A stretch of DNA of 64,000 nt from Amoebidium appalachense (Eukaryota; Protista; Ichthyosporea): assembly GCA_963693365.1 (NCBI GenBank), contig CAVNZM010000007.1, forward strand, positions 10,413,962-10,477,961. Reading direction: 5' to 3'. Made by a program: the position numbers and the translations under genes. Each line of letters opens with the position of its first letter. The stretch's first letter is position 1. A model generated the notes under the pieces. That model ran no database searches. It saw only the letters and a program-made list of their open reading frames with translations, and was not told the DNA's origin. Shown in pieces: positions 5,236 through 63,901 of the stretch.

Positions 5236-6388
5236 TTAGAAGTCCTCATCCATTGGCTCCAGGTCATCATCGTCCATAGCCACCTCCTGGCCCTGTGTCT
5301 CCACCTGCACCTGCTCTGCAACCACTGCTGGCGCTTGCACGGGGGCTGGGGCTGGGGCCGGGGCCGGGTCTGTGTCGGCCATTTGTGCCATGTCTTCGGC
5401 CTAGGCAGACAGTGCAGTGTGCGTGTGTGTGTGTGTGTGTGTGGTGTGTGTGTGTGTGTGTGTGTGTGCGTGTGTGTGTGCGTGTGTGTGTGTGTGCGTG
5501 TGTGTGTGTGTGCATGTGTGTGTGCGTGTGTGTGTGTGTGCGCGGCGGGGGGAGGGAGGGGGGGGGGGGTGTTAGTGTTTGGATTTAACAGGGGAGTCAT
5601 GCAAGACATTCAAAAAAGGTGGGAAAGAAACAGATGCACATAAGCAGGCAGGCCCACCTACACACAAGCACACACACACTCGAGACACACATCATGCCCT
5701 TGCTAGCCATGTGGGTGGATCACGTGTTCTCCCACATGGACACAAATATTAATCACTTAGAATTCTCTACTCATCTGTTGGACCTTATGCAGCCCCCCCC
5801 CCCCCCCCCCCCCCCCCCCCTTTCAGTCCCTCTCTCTCGACCAGCAGAGGTGGAGGAAGGAAAGCGGGTGATCTTGAGTGTATGCGAGGTGATCTTGAGT
5901 GTATGCATGTGTGCATCCATGTGTGCGTGCGTGTATAGAGGGGGGGGGGGGGGGGGGGGGGGGTGGGGGTGGGAATGCGGAACACGGTACGAAGTACGCA
6001 TACACGAAGGACAAATGCAAAGGCAAACATTCAAGTATGCAACATCAGCCATGCGCACAGCATGCGTCATAAGCAGAGCCCATCCTCAGGGAGGGCCCAA
6101 GTCACCAATTGCGTCTGAGTTTCGACCCCTTTGCCCGCGTATATACAACTATCCAACTCAGACAGCAGCATCAACTGAACTTGGGAGGGTCAACCCGTCT
6201 TGATCAAAGACGAGCAGGGTTGCTTATGCAAGCAAGGTGAGCAAAACGGTGAATATGTGTGTGCAAACTAATGCAGTGCAGCGGAAAATGAGTATGTGCT
6301 TACAAATGCACGACACAGAGCAACCATGCCCGGTTGCATGGAAGTAAAGCGGTCTCCACACAGTGGTCTGTCCTGAAAGGACACCTCT

Positions 6389-6419
<31 letters not shown>

Positions 6420-8557: not shown

Positions 8558-8603
<46 letters not shown>

Positions 8604-9365
8604 TGAATGCGTCAAAAAGTATGAAGTACACAAGAACAAACGGATAACACGATGCAGAATGCAAGCCATACATAAAGAGTATGCATAATAAGCAGAGCCC
8701 ATCCTCAGGGGGGGCCCACGTCATCCACAGTACCCGAGTTTCGACCTATTCCCCTCGTTAACGAAACCCAACTCAGATACTGTTTCACTGGGGGATACTT
8801 ACAGTCATCGGCGTTGATGCCGAGCATTTCTGGATAGTCACTCTGCAGGGCACATGCAGTGAGTGAGCGGGTGCACCAACCGTACACACGCAATGAATAG
8901 CAAAGGGAGGATCATGGCCATGCCGCACCCTCAAGAGGGCTCAAAAGCATGAGGCATTCACAGATCGTGCTAGCTATGGGGTGGGATGGTGTGAGGTGTA
9001 ACTAGTGGGAAAGGGATGTGTTAGAGATAGGAAGCAGTGGCAGTGATGCATAGGGGTGCCCTCACCAGCAGGATAGGCTTGCTGTGTTGCTGCAGGCTGC
9101 GCTGTGCATCCTTGGCATCTGCCCACGACACGATACCTGCACGTGCACACACATCAGCACACATGCTGCCCTCTGCCAACATAGACCCCCTCCATATGCC
9201 TAACCCAGCAACCCCCTTCCACACCTGCCCAGTCCACACCATTCCAACCATCTTCCCTCCTTCGACGTTTGTTCAAACCCCCCTCCCCCCTCCCCCTCCC
9301 TCCCCCCCGTTCCCCTTCATCACATAACCATCCATCTATCCTCCCCCCCCCCCCCCCCCCCCCCT

Positions 9366-12863: not shown

Positions 12864-14564
12864 GTGAAATGCAGAACAAGAACACAAAGAATATGAAAAC
12901 CGGGGAGAGAGGGCGAGGGGGGAGGGGGAGTTAAAGATATGCAGAACAACAACACAAAGAATATGCAAATAGGCAGAGCCCATTCTGGGGGGGGAGGGGG
13001 GGGTCTGGTAAATTGCGTGGGTGTGTGTGTGGGGGGGGGGGGGGGGGGGGGGGGGGTAGGGTACAGAGGGGGAAGGAAGTTCCAAATGGCATTATAAACG
13101 ACCTAAAATGGCCACCAATAACTCAAGCCAGGAGGTGCAAAGATTGTTTCAGGCACCCTGGCAGCCTTCTTTTGTGCCCCTACCTGCCGTCTGTCCCTGT
13201 CGTCCTCCCTGTCCTCCGTGTGCCTGCTCCTCCTACGGTCATCCCACATCTTCCTCTCCTCCTCCCTCCGCTGGTGCACCTCGTCATATGCCCCCTCTGC
13301 CTTGTAGAACCTATCGTCGTGCTGACTTTGCCTCCTCCCCGAATCCCTCTCGTCATTCCTGGACCTATCTCCCCCACGTCTCCTATCCCCTCTCCTATCA
13401 TCTCTATCTCTGTCCCTGTCTCCACCCCTGTCTCTGCCTCGGTCTCTGTCTGAACCTCTCCTCCTCTCATCACGCTCATCACGCCTTCCCAGTCTATCCT
13501 CCGTTATCCTGTTCTTTCTCCACTTCCCCTCGCTATCTTTTGGTGGTTCCTGGTTGTCCTGTTGCCTGTCTGTGTTTACTCTTGGGCCTAGCCTACTCCT
13601 AAGGTCCCCTTTGCCCACCGTCACCCCCCCGCCCATTCCCTCTCCCCCGTCGTCTTGGTCGTCAGCTTGCCGTGCCCCCAGGCGCACTCGCACACTGGGT
13701 TTTGCCCTGCAACCACACAGCAATAAGGCACTGGACAGGCATAAATAAACCTAAACCAAGAACCCATGAACATTTCGTTTCTCATGCATATCAGTCCTTG
13801 AAGCTCAGCCTCAACCAATGGTTTCATGCTGAAACATGGACACCAATTGTAATACATGTGCCAAGTACAATAATCTCTGCACACACCTGGCTGCTGCATT
13901 CTGCTGGTCATCGTCCGGCCTGTCCAGGTCACGGTATATCTTGCGTGGACGAGGAGCAAACCCACCACCACCGCGCATGGCGGCCAGCTGGTTGAAGGAG
14001 AAAAGGAAGGAGAAAGAGCAAGGAAGGAGGAAGGAAGGAATGGGAAGATGCTGTCAGGCTACAGGAAGACTCTGCAGAAGACGCCACTCAAAACAATAAC
14101 ATGGAGGCCATAGTTTGAGTTATCCCCGTTTTGCCTGGGCTTCATGATGTGGGAGAATGCAGGGAGGAGGGCAGGGTTGTGTGTGTGGAGGTAAAACGAA
14201 TAGAAGAGAGACGAGGGAAGAGAAGAGAGAGGGCGGGGGGGAAAAAAAGAAGAGGAAGGGTGGAGAAATGTAGGACCCATAGATCGGTAGATGATGTTGA
14301 GAGCACACAACAGAACAAAATGAGAGGAACAAAAGGGTAACCGTTACTAAAGGGTGACAACATGAAACAAGAAGACTTAGGTCAGGCATAGCAAAGAAGC
14401 ACAAAAAGCCCCCGTGTACCCCTTGCTTGATAGCTGAGCTTCGACCATGTAGCAAAGCCGCATGGAGTAGGACAATCAAATTCACACTCAGCATCCAGCA
14501 GCCCTTCCACAAACACCAAGTTTACCTCCTGGTCAAACAGATCTGCTTCGTCGTCCAGCATCAT
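5236..14564 (-). CDS. NCBP3: Nuclear cap-binding protein subunit 3 (C17orf85 family), about 14 exons
   Basis: Phase-consistent exons ~14564-14526 ([13 protein letters not shown]), 13987-13887, 13706-13184 (R/D-rich), 11702-11513, 10949-10874, 10294-10272, 9860-9681, 9136-9066, 8843-8804, 7896-7813, 7396-7333, 6984-6949, 6499-6432, 5400-5236 (stop TAA). The core [37 protein letters not shown] and HWRQG..LLRGATEDD match the NCBP3 RRM-like pattern. Confidence 0.8.
5973..6390 (-). mobile_element. Poly-C-associated retroelement, subfamily B, near-full ~420-nt monomer in an NCBP3 intron
   Basis: Closely similar to 19460-19855 (+) and 30811-31253 (-). G/C runs on both sides. Short internal deletion near the 3' end. 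Confidence 0.85.
8602..8789 (-). mobile_element. Poly-C-associated retroelement, subfamily A, 5'-truncated
   Basis: Reverse complement matches ~19023-19210. Ends GCATTCAAA followed by a long C run. Confidence 0.85.
12930..12988 (-). mobile_element. Degenerate fragment of the poly-C-associated family
   Basis: Reverse complement reads CCCCCAGAATGGGCTCTGCCTATTTGCATATTCTTTGTGT, resembling CCCTGAGGATGGGCTCTGCTTATTATGCATACTCTTTATGT. Confidence 0.45.
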
Positions 14565-15127: not shown

Positions 15128-15847
15128 ATGGCGAAACCAAAAGCGACTGAATCAAAAGCGCCTGCCAAGAATGCAACAGGCGCAGCTGTGCCAAAGGCAA
15201 CCACGACCAAGGCACCAGATTCTAAAGCCTCGAGCAAGGCAAAGCTAAACACACCAGCGGCTGTGCCAAGCACGGGCACTGCAGGGGCGGTCAAGCGTGC
15301 AGCCACTCAGAGTGTGAAGGGTGTGGCCAAGAAGGCTAAGCTAGACCCACAACCAGCTGCAAAACCTGCAAAACCTGCCGTACCCGTCACACAAACAAAG
15401 ACAACCGGACAAACGCGGAGCAATGCAACACCCTCCCATGCCATCGCTAGCGGGGAGAAGGCAAAGAAGAAGAAGAAAAAGAAGAACAAGCAGGCTGCAG
15501 TGCCAGAGCAGGCCGTAGATGCAAAGGGAAAGTCGGAGGGTGAGAATGAGGATGTTGAGAACGAGGATAAGAGTGATGGAGATGACATAGATGATATCTT
15601 TCAAGATGCAGCAACAAAAGTTGCAGCGAAAGTAGCGGAGGCGAAGAAAAAGGCCGAGCAGGAAAAGATTAAAAAGGCAAAGGCTGACGTTAAACCGGAG
15701 GATGAGTCGTTTTTTGACAGCAGAGGCCTGAACACGCAGCGACGAAAGAAGGTTGAAGGTGTGTTTGTTTACACGCTGGACGAGCTAGGGGTGGGCAAAG
15801 GAGGTGACACTGAGTTGTGCCCGTTTGACTGCAAGTGCTGTTATTGA
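15128..15847 (+). CDS. DUF1764-family protein (K/A-rich N-terminus, conserved Cys-rich C-terminus), single exon
   Basis: Clean 239-aa ORF ending FFDSRG..RRKKVEGVFVYTLDELGVGKGGDTELCPFDCKCCY, the characteristic DUF1764 C-terminus. Confidence 0.88.
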   Translation: MAKPKATESKAPAKNATGAAVPKATTTKAPDSKASSKAKLNTPAAVPSTGTAGAVKRAATQSVKGVAKKAKLDPQPAAKPAKPAVPVTQTKTTGQTRSNATPSHAIASGEKAKKKKKKKNKQAAVPEQAVDAKGKSEGENEDVENEDKSDGDDIDDIFQDAATKVAAKVAEAKKKAEQEKIKKAKADVKPEDESFFDSRGLNTQRRKKVEGVFVYTLDELGVGKGGDTELCPFDCKCCY

Positions 15848-18681: not shown

Positions 18682-19210
18682 GGGGGCATAGCTTTCCGTT
18701 CGAAGACGTTAAAGTTCCGCCCTAGTAAGCGTGTTACTACCCTGCGGCGTGGGTCAAATCTCATATTTTCCCCTCTGATTGCGAATTCTGCGGCCTTCGG
18801 GACTTAATTCTTTTCAGCTGGTGTAGTATGTTAGCCAGGGAAGTATCGACTTAGGGTAGCGACGGGGGAGCTTCCTAGAAGCCCCGTCTCCTGAGTTCCC
18901 ATCTATATTTTTCTTGCTTCTGCTTACTGCTGCAACTTTAACCCCCGGCCTTTCCCACTGCCCTTGCCTGCATAGGCAACCCTGCTCGTCTCTGATCAAG
19001 ACGGGTGACCTACCCATGTTCAAGTGAAACAGTATCTGAGCTGGGTTTCGTTAACGAGGTGAATATGTCGAAACTCGGGTACTGTGGATGACGCGGGCCC
19101 CCCCTGAGGATGGGCTCTGCTTATTATGCATACTCTTTATGTATGGCTTGCATTCTGGATCGTGTTATCCGTTTGTTCTTGTGTACTTCGTACTTTTTGA
19201 CGCATTCAAA
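18682..19210 (+). mobile_element. Poly-C-associated retroelement, subfamily A, longest copy; possible Penelope-like (Chlamys/Naiad-type) 3' end
   Basis: Starts and ends at C runs. The 3' ~235 nt share the structured module with other copies. The 5' part translates to ..RVTTLRRGSNLIFSPLIANSAAFGT*. Confidence 0.75.
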
Positions 19211-19228
19211 CCCCCCCTCTTCCCTCGG

Positions 19229-19459: not shown

Positions 19460-19855
19460 CGCTTTACTTCCATGCAACCGGGCATGGTTGCTCTGTGTCG
19501 TGCATCTGTAAGCACATACACATTTTTCGCTGCACTGCATTAGTTTGCACACACATCTTCACCGTTTTGCTCATCTTGCTTGCATAAGCAACCCTGCTCG
19601 TCTTTGATCAAGACGGGTTGACCCCCCAAGTTCAGTTGATGCTGCTGTCTGAGTTGGAGAGTCGTATATACGCGGGCTAAGGGGTCGAAACTCAGACGCA
19701 ATTGATGACTTGGGCCCTCCCTGAGGATGGGCTCTGCTTATGACGCATACTGTGCGCATGGATGATGTTGCATACTTGAATGTTTGCCTTTGCATGTGTC
19801 CTGCACCATGCTTCTCATCGTGTATGCATACTTCGTACCGTGTTCTGCATTCAAA
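19460..19855 (+). mobile_element. Poly-C-associated retroelement, subfamily B, slightly 5'-truncated
   Basis: Matches the reverse complements of 5973-6390 and 30811-31253. Ends GCATTCAAA plus C run. Confidence 0.87.
19583..19742 (+). ncRNA. Structured RNA module with hammerhead-core motifs in permuted order (candidate ribozyme)
   Basis: Closing stem CATAAGCA/TGCTTATG; hairpin CTCGTCTT/AAGACGGG; long stem CCCAAGT..GTCTGAGTT/AACTCAGAC..ACTTGGG; GAAA at 19687-19690; CTGAGGA at 19721-19727. Compensatory changes are seen against subfamily A. Confidence 0.55.
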
Positions 19856-19904
19856 CCCCCCTCTCTCCCCTCATTCTTCCTTTCCTATCCTTCCTCCCCT
19901 TCCT

Positions 19905-20007: not shown

Positions 20008-20111
20008 CCCCAAAGATGGGCTCTTCTCGTTGTGTATACTCTTTCTGTGTGGGTTGCACTCTGTGTAGTCATGTCCGTGAACGTGTACTTTCGTACTTCA
20101 TAACACATCGC
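20008..20111 (+). mobile_element. Diverged 3' fragment of the poly-C-associated family
   Basis: CCCCAAAGATGGGCTCT..GTATACTCTTTCTGTGTGGGTTGCACTCTG..GTGTACTTTCGTACTT aligns by eye with the subfamily A 3' end. Confidence 0.6.
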
Positions 20112-27589: not shown

Positions 27590-36319
<8,730 letters not shown>

Positions 36320-37162: not shown

Positions 37163-44222
<7,060 letters not shown>

Positions 44223-59508: not shown

Positions 59509-59754
59509 AGGGGGGGATGGGGAGGAGGACAGGATTTCAGCAATGGTCGATCAAGCATGCCTGTCACGTGACCCACCAGCCCCACTGATCGTGGGCCTTA
59601 ACTGTTGGAATACGTCACTACGTAGGACAGCAAGAGTCTTGAAGTATGTATGTGTCTTAGCTTTGTTTGTATTCGTGTCTGCTCTCCTTCTTTGTGCTCT
59701 CCCCCCTCTCTCCCTTTTTCTCTTTTCTTTCTCTCTCTCTCTCTCTCTCTCTCT

Positions 59755-59786
<32 letters not shown>

Positions 59787-60834
59787 CTCTCTCTCTCTCT
59801 CCCTTGCTTCTGTGTGCACAGATATCTGTAGATCTGTGCACACCTGGTTCCTTTTGCCTGATAGAACTTATTGTATTTTATCTGTGTTTGCTCTCCTCTG
59901 TTTATCTGAGAGGTAGCGTGATTGGCTAGCTACATTCGTTGTCTTTGTTTTATTTCAAAGAGGTTTAGTTTTAGTTCACAATAAGATGACTCGCCAATAG
60001 TCGCGAGTGAGTACATCTATAGATCGTGTTGTGCATTCCTGTCTATTAATATACGTGTTATGATTGGACACAATAGATATATATGGAATTCGTATATCGT
60101 AATGTGTCTTCACTTTGAGAGTGTCGACTATTAGGATATATATGTATGTAGTTAAATGAGTTTCTTTGTAGAGACGAGTATAAATATATATGTGTATAAA
60201 TAGTGACAAGATGTATAATTACTTAAGTTATTTAAGTAAGAGTTTCTAAGCTTCAGTTATGTCGGAAGTTGGAATGCGTATGCTCTGTCGGAATGTGTTT
60301 TTCTATCATCTGATAGAAAAGATTGGTTCTCCCGTTTTAGTTGAGATAAGATGATAAGTTGCAAGTACAAAAAGACACGAGAGCGCAATAAAAGGTCAGT
60401 TGTTGTTTGAAATCTTTCATGTGTCGCGAACAACTCCGATTGCCCTCTCTTTATTGTGTTGGTCGTGTTTTACATGACACCTCTGTGCACCCTGCTCCCT
60501 TAGACCCGTACAAAACAACATTAACAGCCCCTAGCCCTTAGGCCTTAACCCCTTAACCAGTCCATGCATCTGCACCTCCATAAGACCTATTGATGCACAA
60601 TGTGGCAGTCTAACCTTTCAGGTCCCTTCCCCCCACCCATCCCCCTCCGCACACACACAGATACACATTGCTGTGTGTGTGGGCGGGGGAGGGGAGAGGG
60701 GGGCGGGGGGAGGGGAAGAGGAAGGGGGGGGGGGGGGGGGATGGGGGTGCGCATGCATGTGGCTTTGCAAGTGTAGTTATAGGCATGGATATGGTGGGGT
60801 GCACAAAGCACTCCATGCTGTGTGTGTTAACCTT

Positions 60835-60923
<89 letters not shown>

Positions 60924-61910
60924 ATACGTTCGTGGGGTCGGGCGGGGGGCGGCGGGGGGGGGGGGGGGGGGGGGGGCAGGCTTTTTTTTGGGAGGGGGGG
61001 AGAGCTTCATGGTTCCACCTGGTTTGCTCTTTATGGTGGTTTATTGCATGCGGTGGGTGTGTGCGGTGTTAGTCCAGTAGGCCCCGAGATTGGAGAGATT
61101 GAAAGTTTAGGGGGAAGAAGGGTGGGTGGGTGGTGGGCGGGTGGGGGGAGGGGGAAGGTACTCAATAATTATATTGGGGTAGGGAAGAGAGTGAAGGGTA
61201 GATGCAGTCTGATGCAGCAGGCCGTATAGCAGGAAAGAGAGTTGGGGATGGGTTTCAAGAAGGGGGTGTGGGAGGGAGCGGGGAGGAGAGGGAGCGGGAG
61301 GGGAGGGGGGGTGAAGGGGGGGTCTTGCGGGGGGAGGGAGGGGCGGGTGGGGGAAGGGGAGGGGGGGTGGATGGATTTGGGGAGGGGCGGGGGGGGGGGG
61401 GGGGAGGGGGTAGAGTTGGGGTGCTAGGGTTAGGGCGGGGTGGGGTGGGGGGGGGGACGGGGGGCGGGGGGAAAGGAGGTGCAGGGGGAGGAGAGTGGTA
61501 TACCGATGTATGTGCATGCAAAAGGTGGCTGATCAAGATATACACAAAAGAAGTGTGAGGGCCTAGGTGTGAGGAGATTATGGGGAGATTGGGGGGGGAG
61601 GGGGGGGGGGGGGGGGAGGAGAACGGGGGAGGTGGGAGAGGAGGAAGGGGGGGGCACGGGGGTTGGGGAGGAGGGCAGAAGGAAGGGGGGTGGGGTTGAT
61701 ATGTGCATGTGTGTATGTATGGGAAGCGGGCGGGGAAGACCTTTAAAAAGCTTAATCTGCTACATTGTGCGTCAATAGACTTATGGAGGTGCAGAAGAAG
61801 GTTAAGGGGTTAAGGCCTAACGGCTAGGGGCTGTTAAGGCCTACTATCAGTGGGGCTGGTGGGTCACGTGACAGGCAAGCTTGATCGACCATTGCTGAAG
61901 ACACTGGTGT

Positions 61911-61959
<49 letters not shown>

Positions 61960-62060
61960 GCATGTGTGTGTGTGCATATGCATGCACATGTGCCTGTGCA
62001 CGTGTACTTGTGGGTATGGGTGTGATGGTGTGCACCCAGCACTTCATGCTGTGTGCATTG
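59272..62060. repeat. Diverged duplicated block (W-X-Z-V), middle X-Z segment inverted in the second copy
   Basis: W 59272-59368 ~ 61498-61594 (direct); V 60748-60825 ~ 61978-62055 (direct); X 59536-59602 plus Z 60521-60660 ~ reverse complement of ~61700-61899. Confidence 0.75.
59603..60520 (+). mobile_element. Solo LTR (918 bp) of an LTR retrotransposon
   Basis: Termini TGTTG..CAACA (5-bp inverted repeat, TG..CA). 5-bp target duplication TTAAC at 59598-59602 and 60521-60525. AT-rich body with TATAAA (~60179) and AATAAA (~60387). An uninterrupted site is present in reverse at ~61800-61860. Confidence 0.88.
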
Positions 62061-62501
62061 GCTGATATTTCACAGATACCGGCCGAAGATGTGGTAGAAA
62101 ACGAAGGGAAGGAAAGTCCCGGCAGGAGGGAAGAGGCAAATGGAGGCCAAGGGAGGGACCGAGGTAGAAGGAGAGGGGGGTGGGGGGGTGGGTGGGGGGG
62201 GGAGGGGGGGGGGGCAAAGAGGTGTATGTGTGTGTGTGTGTGTGTGTGTATGGGGGGGGGGGGAGGGCTAGGGGGGGGGGGCACAGATTTATTGTTTGGC
62301 GGGTAACAACCGTGTGGGTGGGTGGTGGTGGTGGTGGTGTTGGTTGGGGGGGGGGGGGGGGGGGGGGGGGAGGGGGGGGGAGGGGTTAGACAGAGAGAAA
62401 GCGGGAGAGACCGAGGGAGGGAGGAGGGGAAGGAGGGGGAGAGCAAGAGAGTTTTTGCTCTCGGAAACACGGGAAGAGAGGTGTGGGTTCCGATCGGGAT
62501 G

Positions 62502-62538
<37 letters not shown>

Positions 62539-62586
62539 TAAGGGGGTTAGACAGAGCGAAAGAGTGAGAGAAAGGGAGGGGGGGAT

Positions 62587-62622
<36 letters not shown>

Positions 62623-62708
62623 GGGAGGGAGAGAGAGAGTGATCTTTGATTTGCCCTCGGAAACACGGGGGAAGAGGTGGGTTCCGAGGGGGGCACGGGC
62701 AGGGGCTG

Positions 62709-62823
62709 AAATACAATAAGTTCTATCAGGCAAGAGAGCCAGGTGTGCACAGATCTACAGATATCTGTGCACACAGAAACAAGGGAGAGAGAGAGAGATA
62801 CGGGGGGGGGGGGGGGGGGGGGG

Positions 62824-62867
<44 letters not shown>

Positions 62868-63056
62868 AAAAGAGAAAAGGGAGGGAGGGGGGAGAGCACA
62901 AAGAAGGAGAGCAGACACGAATACAAACAAAGCTAAGACACATACATACTTCAAGACTCTTGCTGTCCTACGTAGTGACGTATTCCAACACGAATACAAG
63001 CAAAGCTAAGACACATACATACTTCAAGACTCTTGCTGTCCTACGTAGTGACGTAT
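62709..63056 (-). mobile_element. Partial inverted copy of the same LTR (5' ~280 bp) plus tandem duplication of ~66 bp
   Basis: 62709-62990 is the reverse complement of ~59603-59878, ending at the TGTTGG terminus; 62990-63056 repeats ~62917-62983. Confidence 0.85.
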
Positions 63057-63901
63057 TGTTGTAGTACTAAGTATCTACATGTTTAAGATCTTTTCAGTTT
63101 GTGTTGTGTTTCAGTTCATGTGCTTAGCCATGATAAATGTCACACTCCTACTATGTAAAGTGTAGCATCGATCTCCGATATGCTTGTATACTTGTAATCG
63201 TGTTGTATCGGCTTTAATCGTGTGTTGCAATATCGATTAGAATATGAAAATGTGTGTACACGGATCCACCCACTCAGGGAAGGACGTGTACATGTTCGTG
63301 TGTACATAAATATCTTTAGTTATAGTTATAAGTTATTACTATCTTGTTTGTTGATCTGTGCTCTTTTCTCCTTTCTCTTTCTCCTTCTTTATTTTCTTTT
63401 CTTTCTCTCCTTGTTTTCATGTGTATAATCGTATTTCTTTTCTACTCATATATGTTAGGTAGATTTGTGTTACTTAATATGTGTTGATTGGACGGTAACA
63501 CACTTAGGCTACACTTGGGTTGACATCATCAGTGTGTGATTAGACTTCATTAATTTACTTTAGTTTTCATGTGTTGCCGTGCTTTAACCAATCATCAAGG
63601 TTAAGTGTGGTATGTCTGAGTCTTTGCATAGTGTCACAGGTTAGAACCTCGATAATGACGCAAGTTGATCTTCGCTAGTGTCTGTGCCCTATCCTGTACA
63701 TATCCGCGTACCGGATCTCTCTGAAAGCAATTAGTTCTTAGTGATTGGTTTCTTTTAGAGACAGATCTGATTTCCGACTGGTCGGAAATCATGGATAGGT
63801 TTGACTTAAGGGATTACGAGTATATATACGAGATCGGAATAAATTTAGTTCAGTCGTGTCTAAACATTGATGTCTGTTGTGTACCAGTACTGCTCCGATC
63901 G

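Follow-up and report, generated by a model that had tools for sequence, protein, structure and literature searches.

The locus and its repeat

The window analysed here is a stretch of 64,000 nt from Amoebidium appalachense (contig CAVNZM010000007.1, positions 10,413,962 to 10,477,961 of the forward strand), eukaryotic DNA that is rich in C/G runs and CA repeats and whose genes include those of a DUF1764 protein, a glutaredoxin and a papain-family protease. It also holds copies of a non-coding repeat with two subfamilies, A and B, in which the core letters of a hammerhead ribozyme stand in an unusual order. The best explanation, which we regard as probable, is a self-cleaving hammerhead of non-circular (SGC/CSG) order, housed in a non-autonomous retroposon, whose core is predicted to be severed at A9/G10.1 and rejoined by two extra helices. 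By analogy, the predicted cut falls after U19655 (19655/19656), the same position at which an earlier note on this DNA had arrived.

Three B copies and three A copies reach the motif (two of the latter are 5′-truncated), and five shorter 3′ fragments match at E < 1e-4. The copies, with the partial tandem beside one of them, are:

19462-19861 (+): copy B1, a non-coding repeat, 5′-truncated and ending in a C run, 92-96% identical to B2 and B3
30811-31260 (-): copy B2, a complete unit of 450 nt, C run to C run
31261-31333 (-): 73-nt repeat of the unit's 3′ end, head-to-tail upstream of B2, a partial tandem resembling a pseudo-long terminal repeat (pseudo-LTR), 100% identical to 30811-30883
5965-6390 (-): copy B3, with a stem I of 3 bp and one kink-turn A altered
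18684-19214 (+): copy A1, of the second subfamily
8597-8790 (-): copy A2, 5′-truncated just upstream of stem III
40747-40896 (+): copy A3, 5′-truncated at block G, with C3 changed to G

The two subfamilies have only the motif (78% identity over 178 nt) and the last ~40 nt in common. Within a single C/CT-rich tract, some 250 nt separate copies A1 (18684-19214) and B1 (19462-19861), which have the same orientation.

Core blocks and chance expectation

The three core segments lie where the earlier note had put them, block S at 19647-19659, block G at 19681-19697 and block C at 19717-19731, and the subfamily A strands read as it had quoted them. All 15 of the 15 core letters (C3-A9, G12-A15.1, U16.1, H17 and G10.1-C11.1) are present and identical in A and B, as compared with 107 of the 147 remaining columns; in the central part, 51 of the 85 non-core columns are identical, so that 40% differ. 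The stems flanking the core comprise 3-4 bp (stem I), 5 bp (stem II) and 8-13 bp (stem III), with one compensated pair in stem I and one in stem II. Across four sequencing runs, no variant at 2% or more is listed in the core, nor in blocks S and G, and the sites that do vary among reads fall mostly at predicted unpaired joints (the spacer after stem II, the base after stem I, the linker before stem I and the loop of the hairpin hp1 described below).

A descriptor that was composed after the motif had been seen (the core with a stem I of at least 3 bp and a stem III of at least 7 bp) matches by itself 19 times in 40 block-shuffled windows, both strands included; 3 of these 19 matches have an adjacent stem II of at least 4 bp, and 0 of 19 have an upstream stem II together with an interaction helix. 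The actual window contains 4 matches, all of them element copies and hence not independent of one another, and 3 of the 4 have the upstream stem II. The block order is SGC in all four, the cyclic order C, G, S of types I-III not being encountered, and the descriptor scan of the window yields no minus-strand hammerheads. When the upstream segment alone is shuffled, a stem II plus interaction-helix strand arises in 166 of 20000 trials for B and in 174 of 20000 for A. Among the 80 matches that Rfam returns at E ≤ 1 there is no hammerhead; all are repeat-driven. Further, 8 viral and 3 metagenome loci from scans of sequence collections show neither block S nor the stems, and all 11 were set aside as chance; the 3 metagenome loci resemble bacterial DNA.

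Wiring of the split core

The strand before GAAA has two candidate partners. Pairing it with the bases directly after CUGAGGA needs a 2-nt insertion and gives an adjacent stem II that is half G-U, 83% paired and free of compensated pairs, whereas an upstream strand at 19620-19624 gives a stem II that is 95% paired with one compensated pair between B and A. From these pairing patterns, stem II is likely to be formed by the upstream strand. If so, G10.1 lies ~100 nt upstream of A9, and block C is interrupted at A9/G10.1. The resulting layout is as follows:

19583-19590 (+): 5′ strand of the closing helix, pairing with 19735-19742; 8 pairs, pair probability 1.0 in B1-B3
19592-19595 (+): 5′ strand of helix X (CCCU), pairing with 19728-19731 right after A9 by three G-C pairs and a U.U
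19596-19618 (+): extra hairpin hp1, whose 3′ end runs into G10.1, with one extra U in B and none in A
19620-19624 (+): 5′ strand of stem II (G10.1-ACCC), pairing with 19682-19686; C-G to U-A compensation between B and A
19625-19634 (+): 5′ strand of the stem I-II interaction helix, pairing with 19706-19714; A-U to U-G compensation
19635-19640 (+): bulged strand of a likely kink-turn, a 3-nt bulge followed by GA, with its partner at 19703-19705
19647-19659 (+): block S, comprising the stem III 3′ strand, U16.1, U17 and a stem I strand; predicted cut at 19655/19656
19663-19672 (+): self-complementary hairpin of the linker from the stem I strand to the stem II strand; A has another palindrome here
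19682-19697 (+): block G, comprising the stem II 3′ strand, G12-A13-A14-A15.1 and a stem III strand
19717-19727 (+): stem I strand CUCC and an intact CUGAGGA; A-U to G-C compensation in stem I
19728-19742 (+): 3′ strand of helix X, followed by that of the closing helix

Over the six copies, this split structure has 96.9% of 163 cells paired and 3 compensated pairs, with stems I and II and the interaction helix contributing one apiece, as compared with 27-49% paired for slid controls; its covariation score is reached by 0 of 500 shuffles, a figure inflated by the relatedness of the sequences. Stems I and III and the upstream partner of the strand before GAAA, all proposed in the earlier note, thus stand, with compensation in stem I. 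The note's outer stem pairs as described, with the A-U to U-G compensation, and is reassigned here as the interaction helix between stems I and II. All helices of the split layout can pair within one unit, so neither a dimer nor the note's folding across tandem copies is required. The note had taken its A strands from two different copies; at the four pair-breaking letters of A1 (18975, 19041, 19066 and 19094), the pair-restoring letter makes up more than 99% of the depth in run X1, and therefore the majority form of A unites all the strands in a single unit.

Read-level variation falls within the helices as well. In the A-family stem II, 19011 U>C and 19065 A>G each occur at 3-5% in runs X1 and X8, scored separately and with their linkage not established, and C>U at site 19014 of the interaction helix, at about 55%, keeps a U-G pair. 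The spacer from the stem II strand to the interaction helix is 0-1 nt long and is A, U, G or absent in reads. Through the pairing of 19625-19631 with 19708-19714, which includes one compensated pair, the interaction helix ties a strand lying upstream of stem I to one lying downstream of stem II, as in type SGC. Next to it, the kink-turn consensus of a canonical stem, a 3-nt bulge and tandem G.A/A.G occurs at the sequence level in B1, B2 and A, followed by U.U in B and by A.G in A; a kink-turn is likely to link the interaction helix to stem III.

Two other assignments were rejected. The hp1 loop as an alternative core (CUGAUCA in A, UUGAUCA in B) is short of G8 or C3; a split at N7/G8, with position 9 a U, would call for an A9U change and give no account of the intact CUGAGGA. 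The linker is a 10-nt palindrome in both subfamilies (19663-19672 and 19048-19057) with differing sequences, and the hp1 loop is palindromic too. One contig of run X1 has other letters after GAAA at the joint 19010-19107, which may point to a third subfamily that differs in stem III.

Predicted folding energetics

Minimum-energy folding gives the nested scaffold both for B2 (z -2.95) and for the 450-nt unit treated as a circle. Helix X is part of the B2 minimum-energy fold, and hp1 has a pair probability of 0.92-1.0. The scaffold (-51), stem II (-7.1) and stem I (-3.7) together come close to the overall minimum (-61.9), before pseudoknot penalties; according to the model, the active fold would be permitted and not outright favoured. 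The 5′ arm of hp1 (19596-19606) can instead form 11 bp with 19722-19732 in the CUGAGGA region, a possible off-state.

Comparison with known hammerheads

In the sections covered here of Eckert et al. (2023; PMC10085705), hammerheads are split into blocks C, G and S, and the orders SGC, CSG and GCS cleave in vitro; each block is assumed to be uninterrupted, with insertions of 1-2 nt allowed. The non-circular forms described there come from metatranscriptomes, metagenomes and one bacterium, and two natural type-CSG sequences are published. The order UH-GAAA-CUGANGA is accordingly the already known, cleavage-proven type SGC, so that of the new architecture proposed in the earlier note the non-circular order stands, the order itself is not new, and the novelty lies in the wiring, split at A9/G10.1. 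Like the type-SGC motifs of those sections (HRIMA-1 and its variants), the window motif has the S-G-C order, all core letters, the interaction helix and pseudoknotted stems I and II. It differs in that stem II of type SGC lies within 0-2 nt of CUGAnGA, whereas here block C is severed from stem II; in having two extra helices and a likely kink-turn, and thus about 160 nt instead of about 80; and in residing in a genomic repeat with cleavage only predicted, while the SGC motifs come from metatranscriptome contigs with cleavage shown. With type CSG, as published and as read by eye at Naiad 3′ ends, it shares the cyclic order, an interaction helix directly after the stem II strand and a linker of 1-3 nt from that helix to stem I; it can be described as the CSG plan opened at A9/G10.1, with the stem I strand and CUGANGA shifted to the 3′ end.

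A nucleotide that separates position 9 from position 10.1 is a conserved trait of the hammerheads of Penelope-like elements (PLEs; PMC4209133), from which it follows that this joint tolerates insertions. A helix at A9/G10.1 is absent from the portions consulted of PMC3088659, PMC10162972, PMC13725137 and bioRxiv 10.64898/2026.09.16.752053; PMC13725137, within those portions, mentions hammerheads with additional helices, citing its reference 13. The literature searched, outside which most subscription papers fall, does not describe any retrotransposon with a permuted or split hammerhead.

Non-LTR retrozymes reportedly carry type I hammerheads in tandem arrays. The portions consulted of bioRxiv 10.64898/2026.07.22.740005 describe them as small non-autonomous ribozyme-bearing repeats with head-to-tail units, likely copied from circles. 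The window repeat resembles them, as far as those portions go, in being small, non-autonomous and ribozyme-bearing with head-to-tail units, and differs in that its copies are mostly dispersed, truncated and C-tailed, with a permuted split core.

The closest relatives of the layout are found in Naiad elements. In the parts covered of Craig et al. (2021; PMC8557442), Naiad and Chlamys elements are said to proliferate without canonical hammerheads, Chlamys having a (C)n insertion bias and Naiads preferring (TA)n. The comparison spans 78 of the 81 CGAAAC places in the supplement and all of its part 14, misses motifs that are split across lines or differently flanked, and rests on pairings judged by eye. 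Within that scope, 6 Naiad records carry the split layout at their ends, with different stem sequences. Three are from Acropora (6 bp each in helix X, hp1, stem II and stem I, and 9 bp in the interaction helix), two are from Octopus (with the kink-turn in the opposite orientation, and one of them labelled HHR_half_core), and there is one further record (helix X 5 bp, hp1 8 bp). Near-identity among the three Acropora records, and likewise between the two from Octopus, leaves about three independent split examples. All 6 split records have an intact core, and in them the nucleotides that follow CUGAUGA pair with the strand preceding hp1. Moreover, a complete unsplit type-CSG motif with an interaction helix ends 7 Naiad records, including Naiad-1, -2 and -3_Nbra (File S5, CGAAAC places 11, 13-16, 19 and 20), and the interaction helix of the window motif has the same connectivity. 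No split motif appears in Chlamys at CGAAAC places 37-75 or in six 600-nt 3′ ends. In the same source, two Physarum records (File S6, places 71 and 73) have a type I hammerhead of canonical order whose stem II strands are parted by a long intron-like stretch, which the loop-length limits of searches would miss.

Carrier repeat and proposed mechanism

The carrier is likely a non-autonomous, non-coding, (C)n-tailed, 5′-truncated and partly tandem retroposon of 450 nt, judging by its anatomy. It is very abundant in public reads, with 13592 contigs of run X1 and 8600 of run X4 on B1 and 9554 of run X1 on A1, and it is present in at least 20 sequencing runs from 7 studies, one of which runs may be the source sample; none of those listed is on record as RNA. 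Run X9 contains a head-to-tail joint with 58 letters between, about the same length as the B2 tandem. In line with the Naiad and Chlamys elements of the covered supplement, the carrier shows partial tandem insertions, 5′ truncation and microsatellite targeting, and it also shares the (C)n bias with Chlamys and the split layout with 6 Naiad records; in contrast to those PLEs, the window repeat has no open reading frame (ORF) or reverse transcriptase (RT). Its anatomy resembles Chlamys and its ribozyme resembles Naiad. Among the window ORFs no RT-like frame was seen, and the 42-codon frame at the start of A1 gave no homologue. The placement of the motif inside a retroelement, as the earlier note had it, is supported only anatomically; no gene for an RT or an endonuclease turned up, so that Naiad/Chlamys identity, which would take an N-terminal GIY-YIG endonuclease plus RT in the element or a recognisable partner, is not established.

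Three older, diverged 3′ fragments (28475-28584 on the reverse strand, 20008-20110 on the forward strand and 12938-12991 on the reverse strand) begin near the C run before CUGAGGA, and 82 contigs of run X8 likewise start with poly-C at 19098; these starts suggest a truncation hot spot via C-run microhomology.

The predicted cut lies 250 nt into the 450-nt unit and 200 nt from the C run; the loose ends listed, beyond which 501 and 717 further ones lie, include no pile-up of 5′ ends at it. A contig of run X17, a run that may be of RNA, bridges 19603-19690; it fits uncut RNA, a circle or DNA alike and was not used. In the proposed mechanism, the continuous strand 19592-19604 would pair first with the bases after A9 (helix X) and then with the 3′ arm of hp1. 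Helix X and hp1 would stack, so that A9 and G10.1 leave from the same nick and meet G12 and C11.1 as in a normal core, while the kink-turn may bend the interaction helix back toward stem III. Cutting after U19655 would free 450-nt monomers from tandem transcripts; these may then be circularised and reverse-transcribed by a separate autonomous element, a nicked G-rich target strand acting as primer at the C run. Priming of this kind would produce copies that are 5′-truncated, partly tandem and C-tailed.

In a broader proposal, towards which we lean slightly, the CUGANGA strand and stem II lack covalent continuity, four separate strands make up the active site, and the motif is an old RNA-processing module shared by Naiad-related retroelements, which were held to have no ribozymes; here it would drive a circle-based, poly-C-primed retroposon in a host possibly outside animals. 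If true, this would overturn the explicit assumption of the permutation scheme that block C is uninterruptible, reveal a natural way to plug helices into the hammerhead core, and place in eukaryotic transposons the non-circular permutations known so far from metatranscriptomes, metagenomes and one bacterium. The Naiad/Chlamys motifs labelled 'HHR_core' and 'half_core', so far unexplained, would then look like complete permuted ribozymes.

Alternative explanations

Several observations weigh against a self-cleaving split hammerhead. The families are young, so that an invariant core within one family says little, and helix X and hp1 are invariant within the window, their support being the by-eye Naiad comparison. 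A variant at 19615 that disrupts an hp1 pair reaches 18% of the depth in run X4. Helix X begins with a U.U, and stem I has only 3-4 bp. The cleavage triplet is GUU, which is weaker than GUC. A pseudoknot-free model gives a probability of 0.91-0.96 to a local hairpin over CUGAGGA in B1 and B3, and of 0.12-0.14 each to stem III and the interaction helix; the earlier note had itself listed short stems I and II and a local hairpin in this segment as caveats. No window copy begins at the predicted cut. The full copies span the site, so the template must have been either uncut or a religated circle, and the partial tandem is as compatible with a tandem template left uncut as with a circle. No autonomous partner of the repeat was found within the window. 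Lastly, a helical insertion at A9/G10.1 is without precedent in the literature searched, and the premise in the covered sections of PMC10085705 that block C cannot be interrupted speaks against it.

Much of this would also suit a conserved fold derived from a ribozyme that cuts poorly or not at all alone, either dependent on a protein partner (the RT of the element, or one that binds kink-turns) or serving only as a recognition structure for the mobilising enzyme. The dominance of the competing hairpin in B1 and B3, the short stem I, the GUU triplet and the intact genomic copies that span the cut site point that way, as does the weak in vitro cleavage of many PLE hammerheads (PMC4209133). We nevertheless consider this unlikely, if deserving of attention, since A and B agree at all 15 core letters and differ at 40% of the central non-core columns, and since the core is intact in the 6 split Naiad records of the covered supplement. 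An ordinary type-SGC hammerhead, whose stem II combines the strand before GAAA with the bases after CUGAGGA across a 2-nt insertion and whose upstream strand acts as an off-switch, is improbable: such a stem can be drawn (6 bp in B, 4 bp in A2), and the covered sections of PMC10085705 allow 1-2-nt insertions, but it is the half G-U, uncompensated stem described above. Further, the interaction helix directly follows the upstream strand, just as it follows stem II in the covered Naiad CSG motifs, and the bases after CUGAUGA in the split Naiad records pair elsewhere, with the strand before hp1.

A dimeric active form, or one extending across tandem copies, held together by the palindromic linker, is given still less weight and seems very improbable. 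The linker is self-complementary in both subfamilies despite its different sequences, head-to-tail copies exist, and metazoan PLE hammerheads work as dimers (PMC4209133); against this, stem III has 8-13 bp, one unit can form every helix, CUGAGGA and the stem II strand do not adjoin even in a tandem, and the corresponding linker of the Naiad equivalents in the covered supplement is 1-6 nt long. That the motifs arose by chance in a structured repeat is scarcely credible. The core with stems I and III does occur about 0.5 times per shuffled window (19 in 40), and the window has only two independent subfamilies, but the full layout appears in 0 of 40 shuffled windows, three helices contain compensations, and the same six-helix layout recurs in distant Naiads of the covered records. 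The self-cleaving split hammerhead is the reading that we retain.

Neighbouring features

A second repeat family lies beside C/CT runs at 59536-59878, 61486-61899 and 62709-63057, with a 70-nt tandem duplication at 62915-63057; across 59536-63057 it has no hammerhead descriptor match. The glutaredoxin exon scores 99 bits against the best glutaredoxin-3 entry, and the introns of this gene hold tandem arrays at 31473-31777 and about 32440-33120, one of period 88 and one visible only as repeating translations. The DUF1764 gene (15128-15847, forward strand; Pfam E 1.9e-22) is intronless among intron-rich neighbours, and its protein has 5 matches, two at 60-67% and two, from dictyostelids, at 48-51%.
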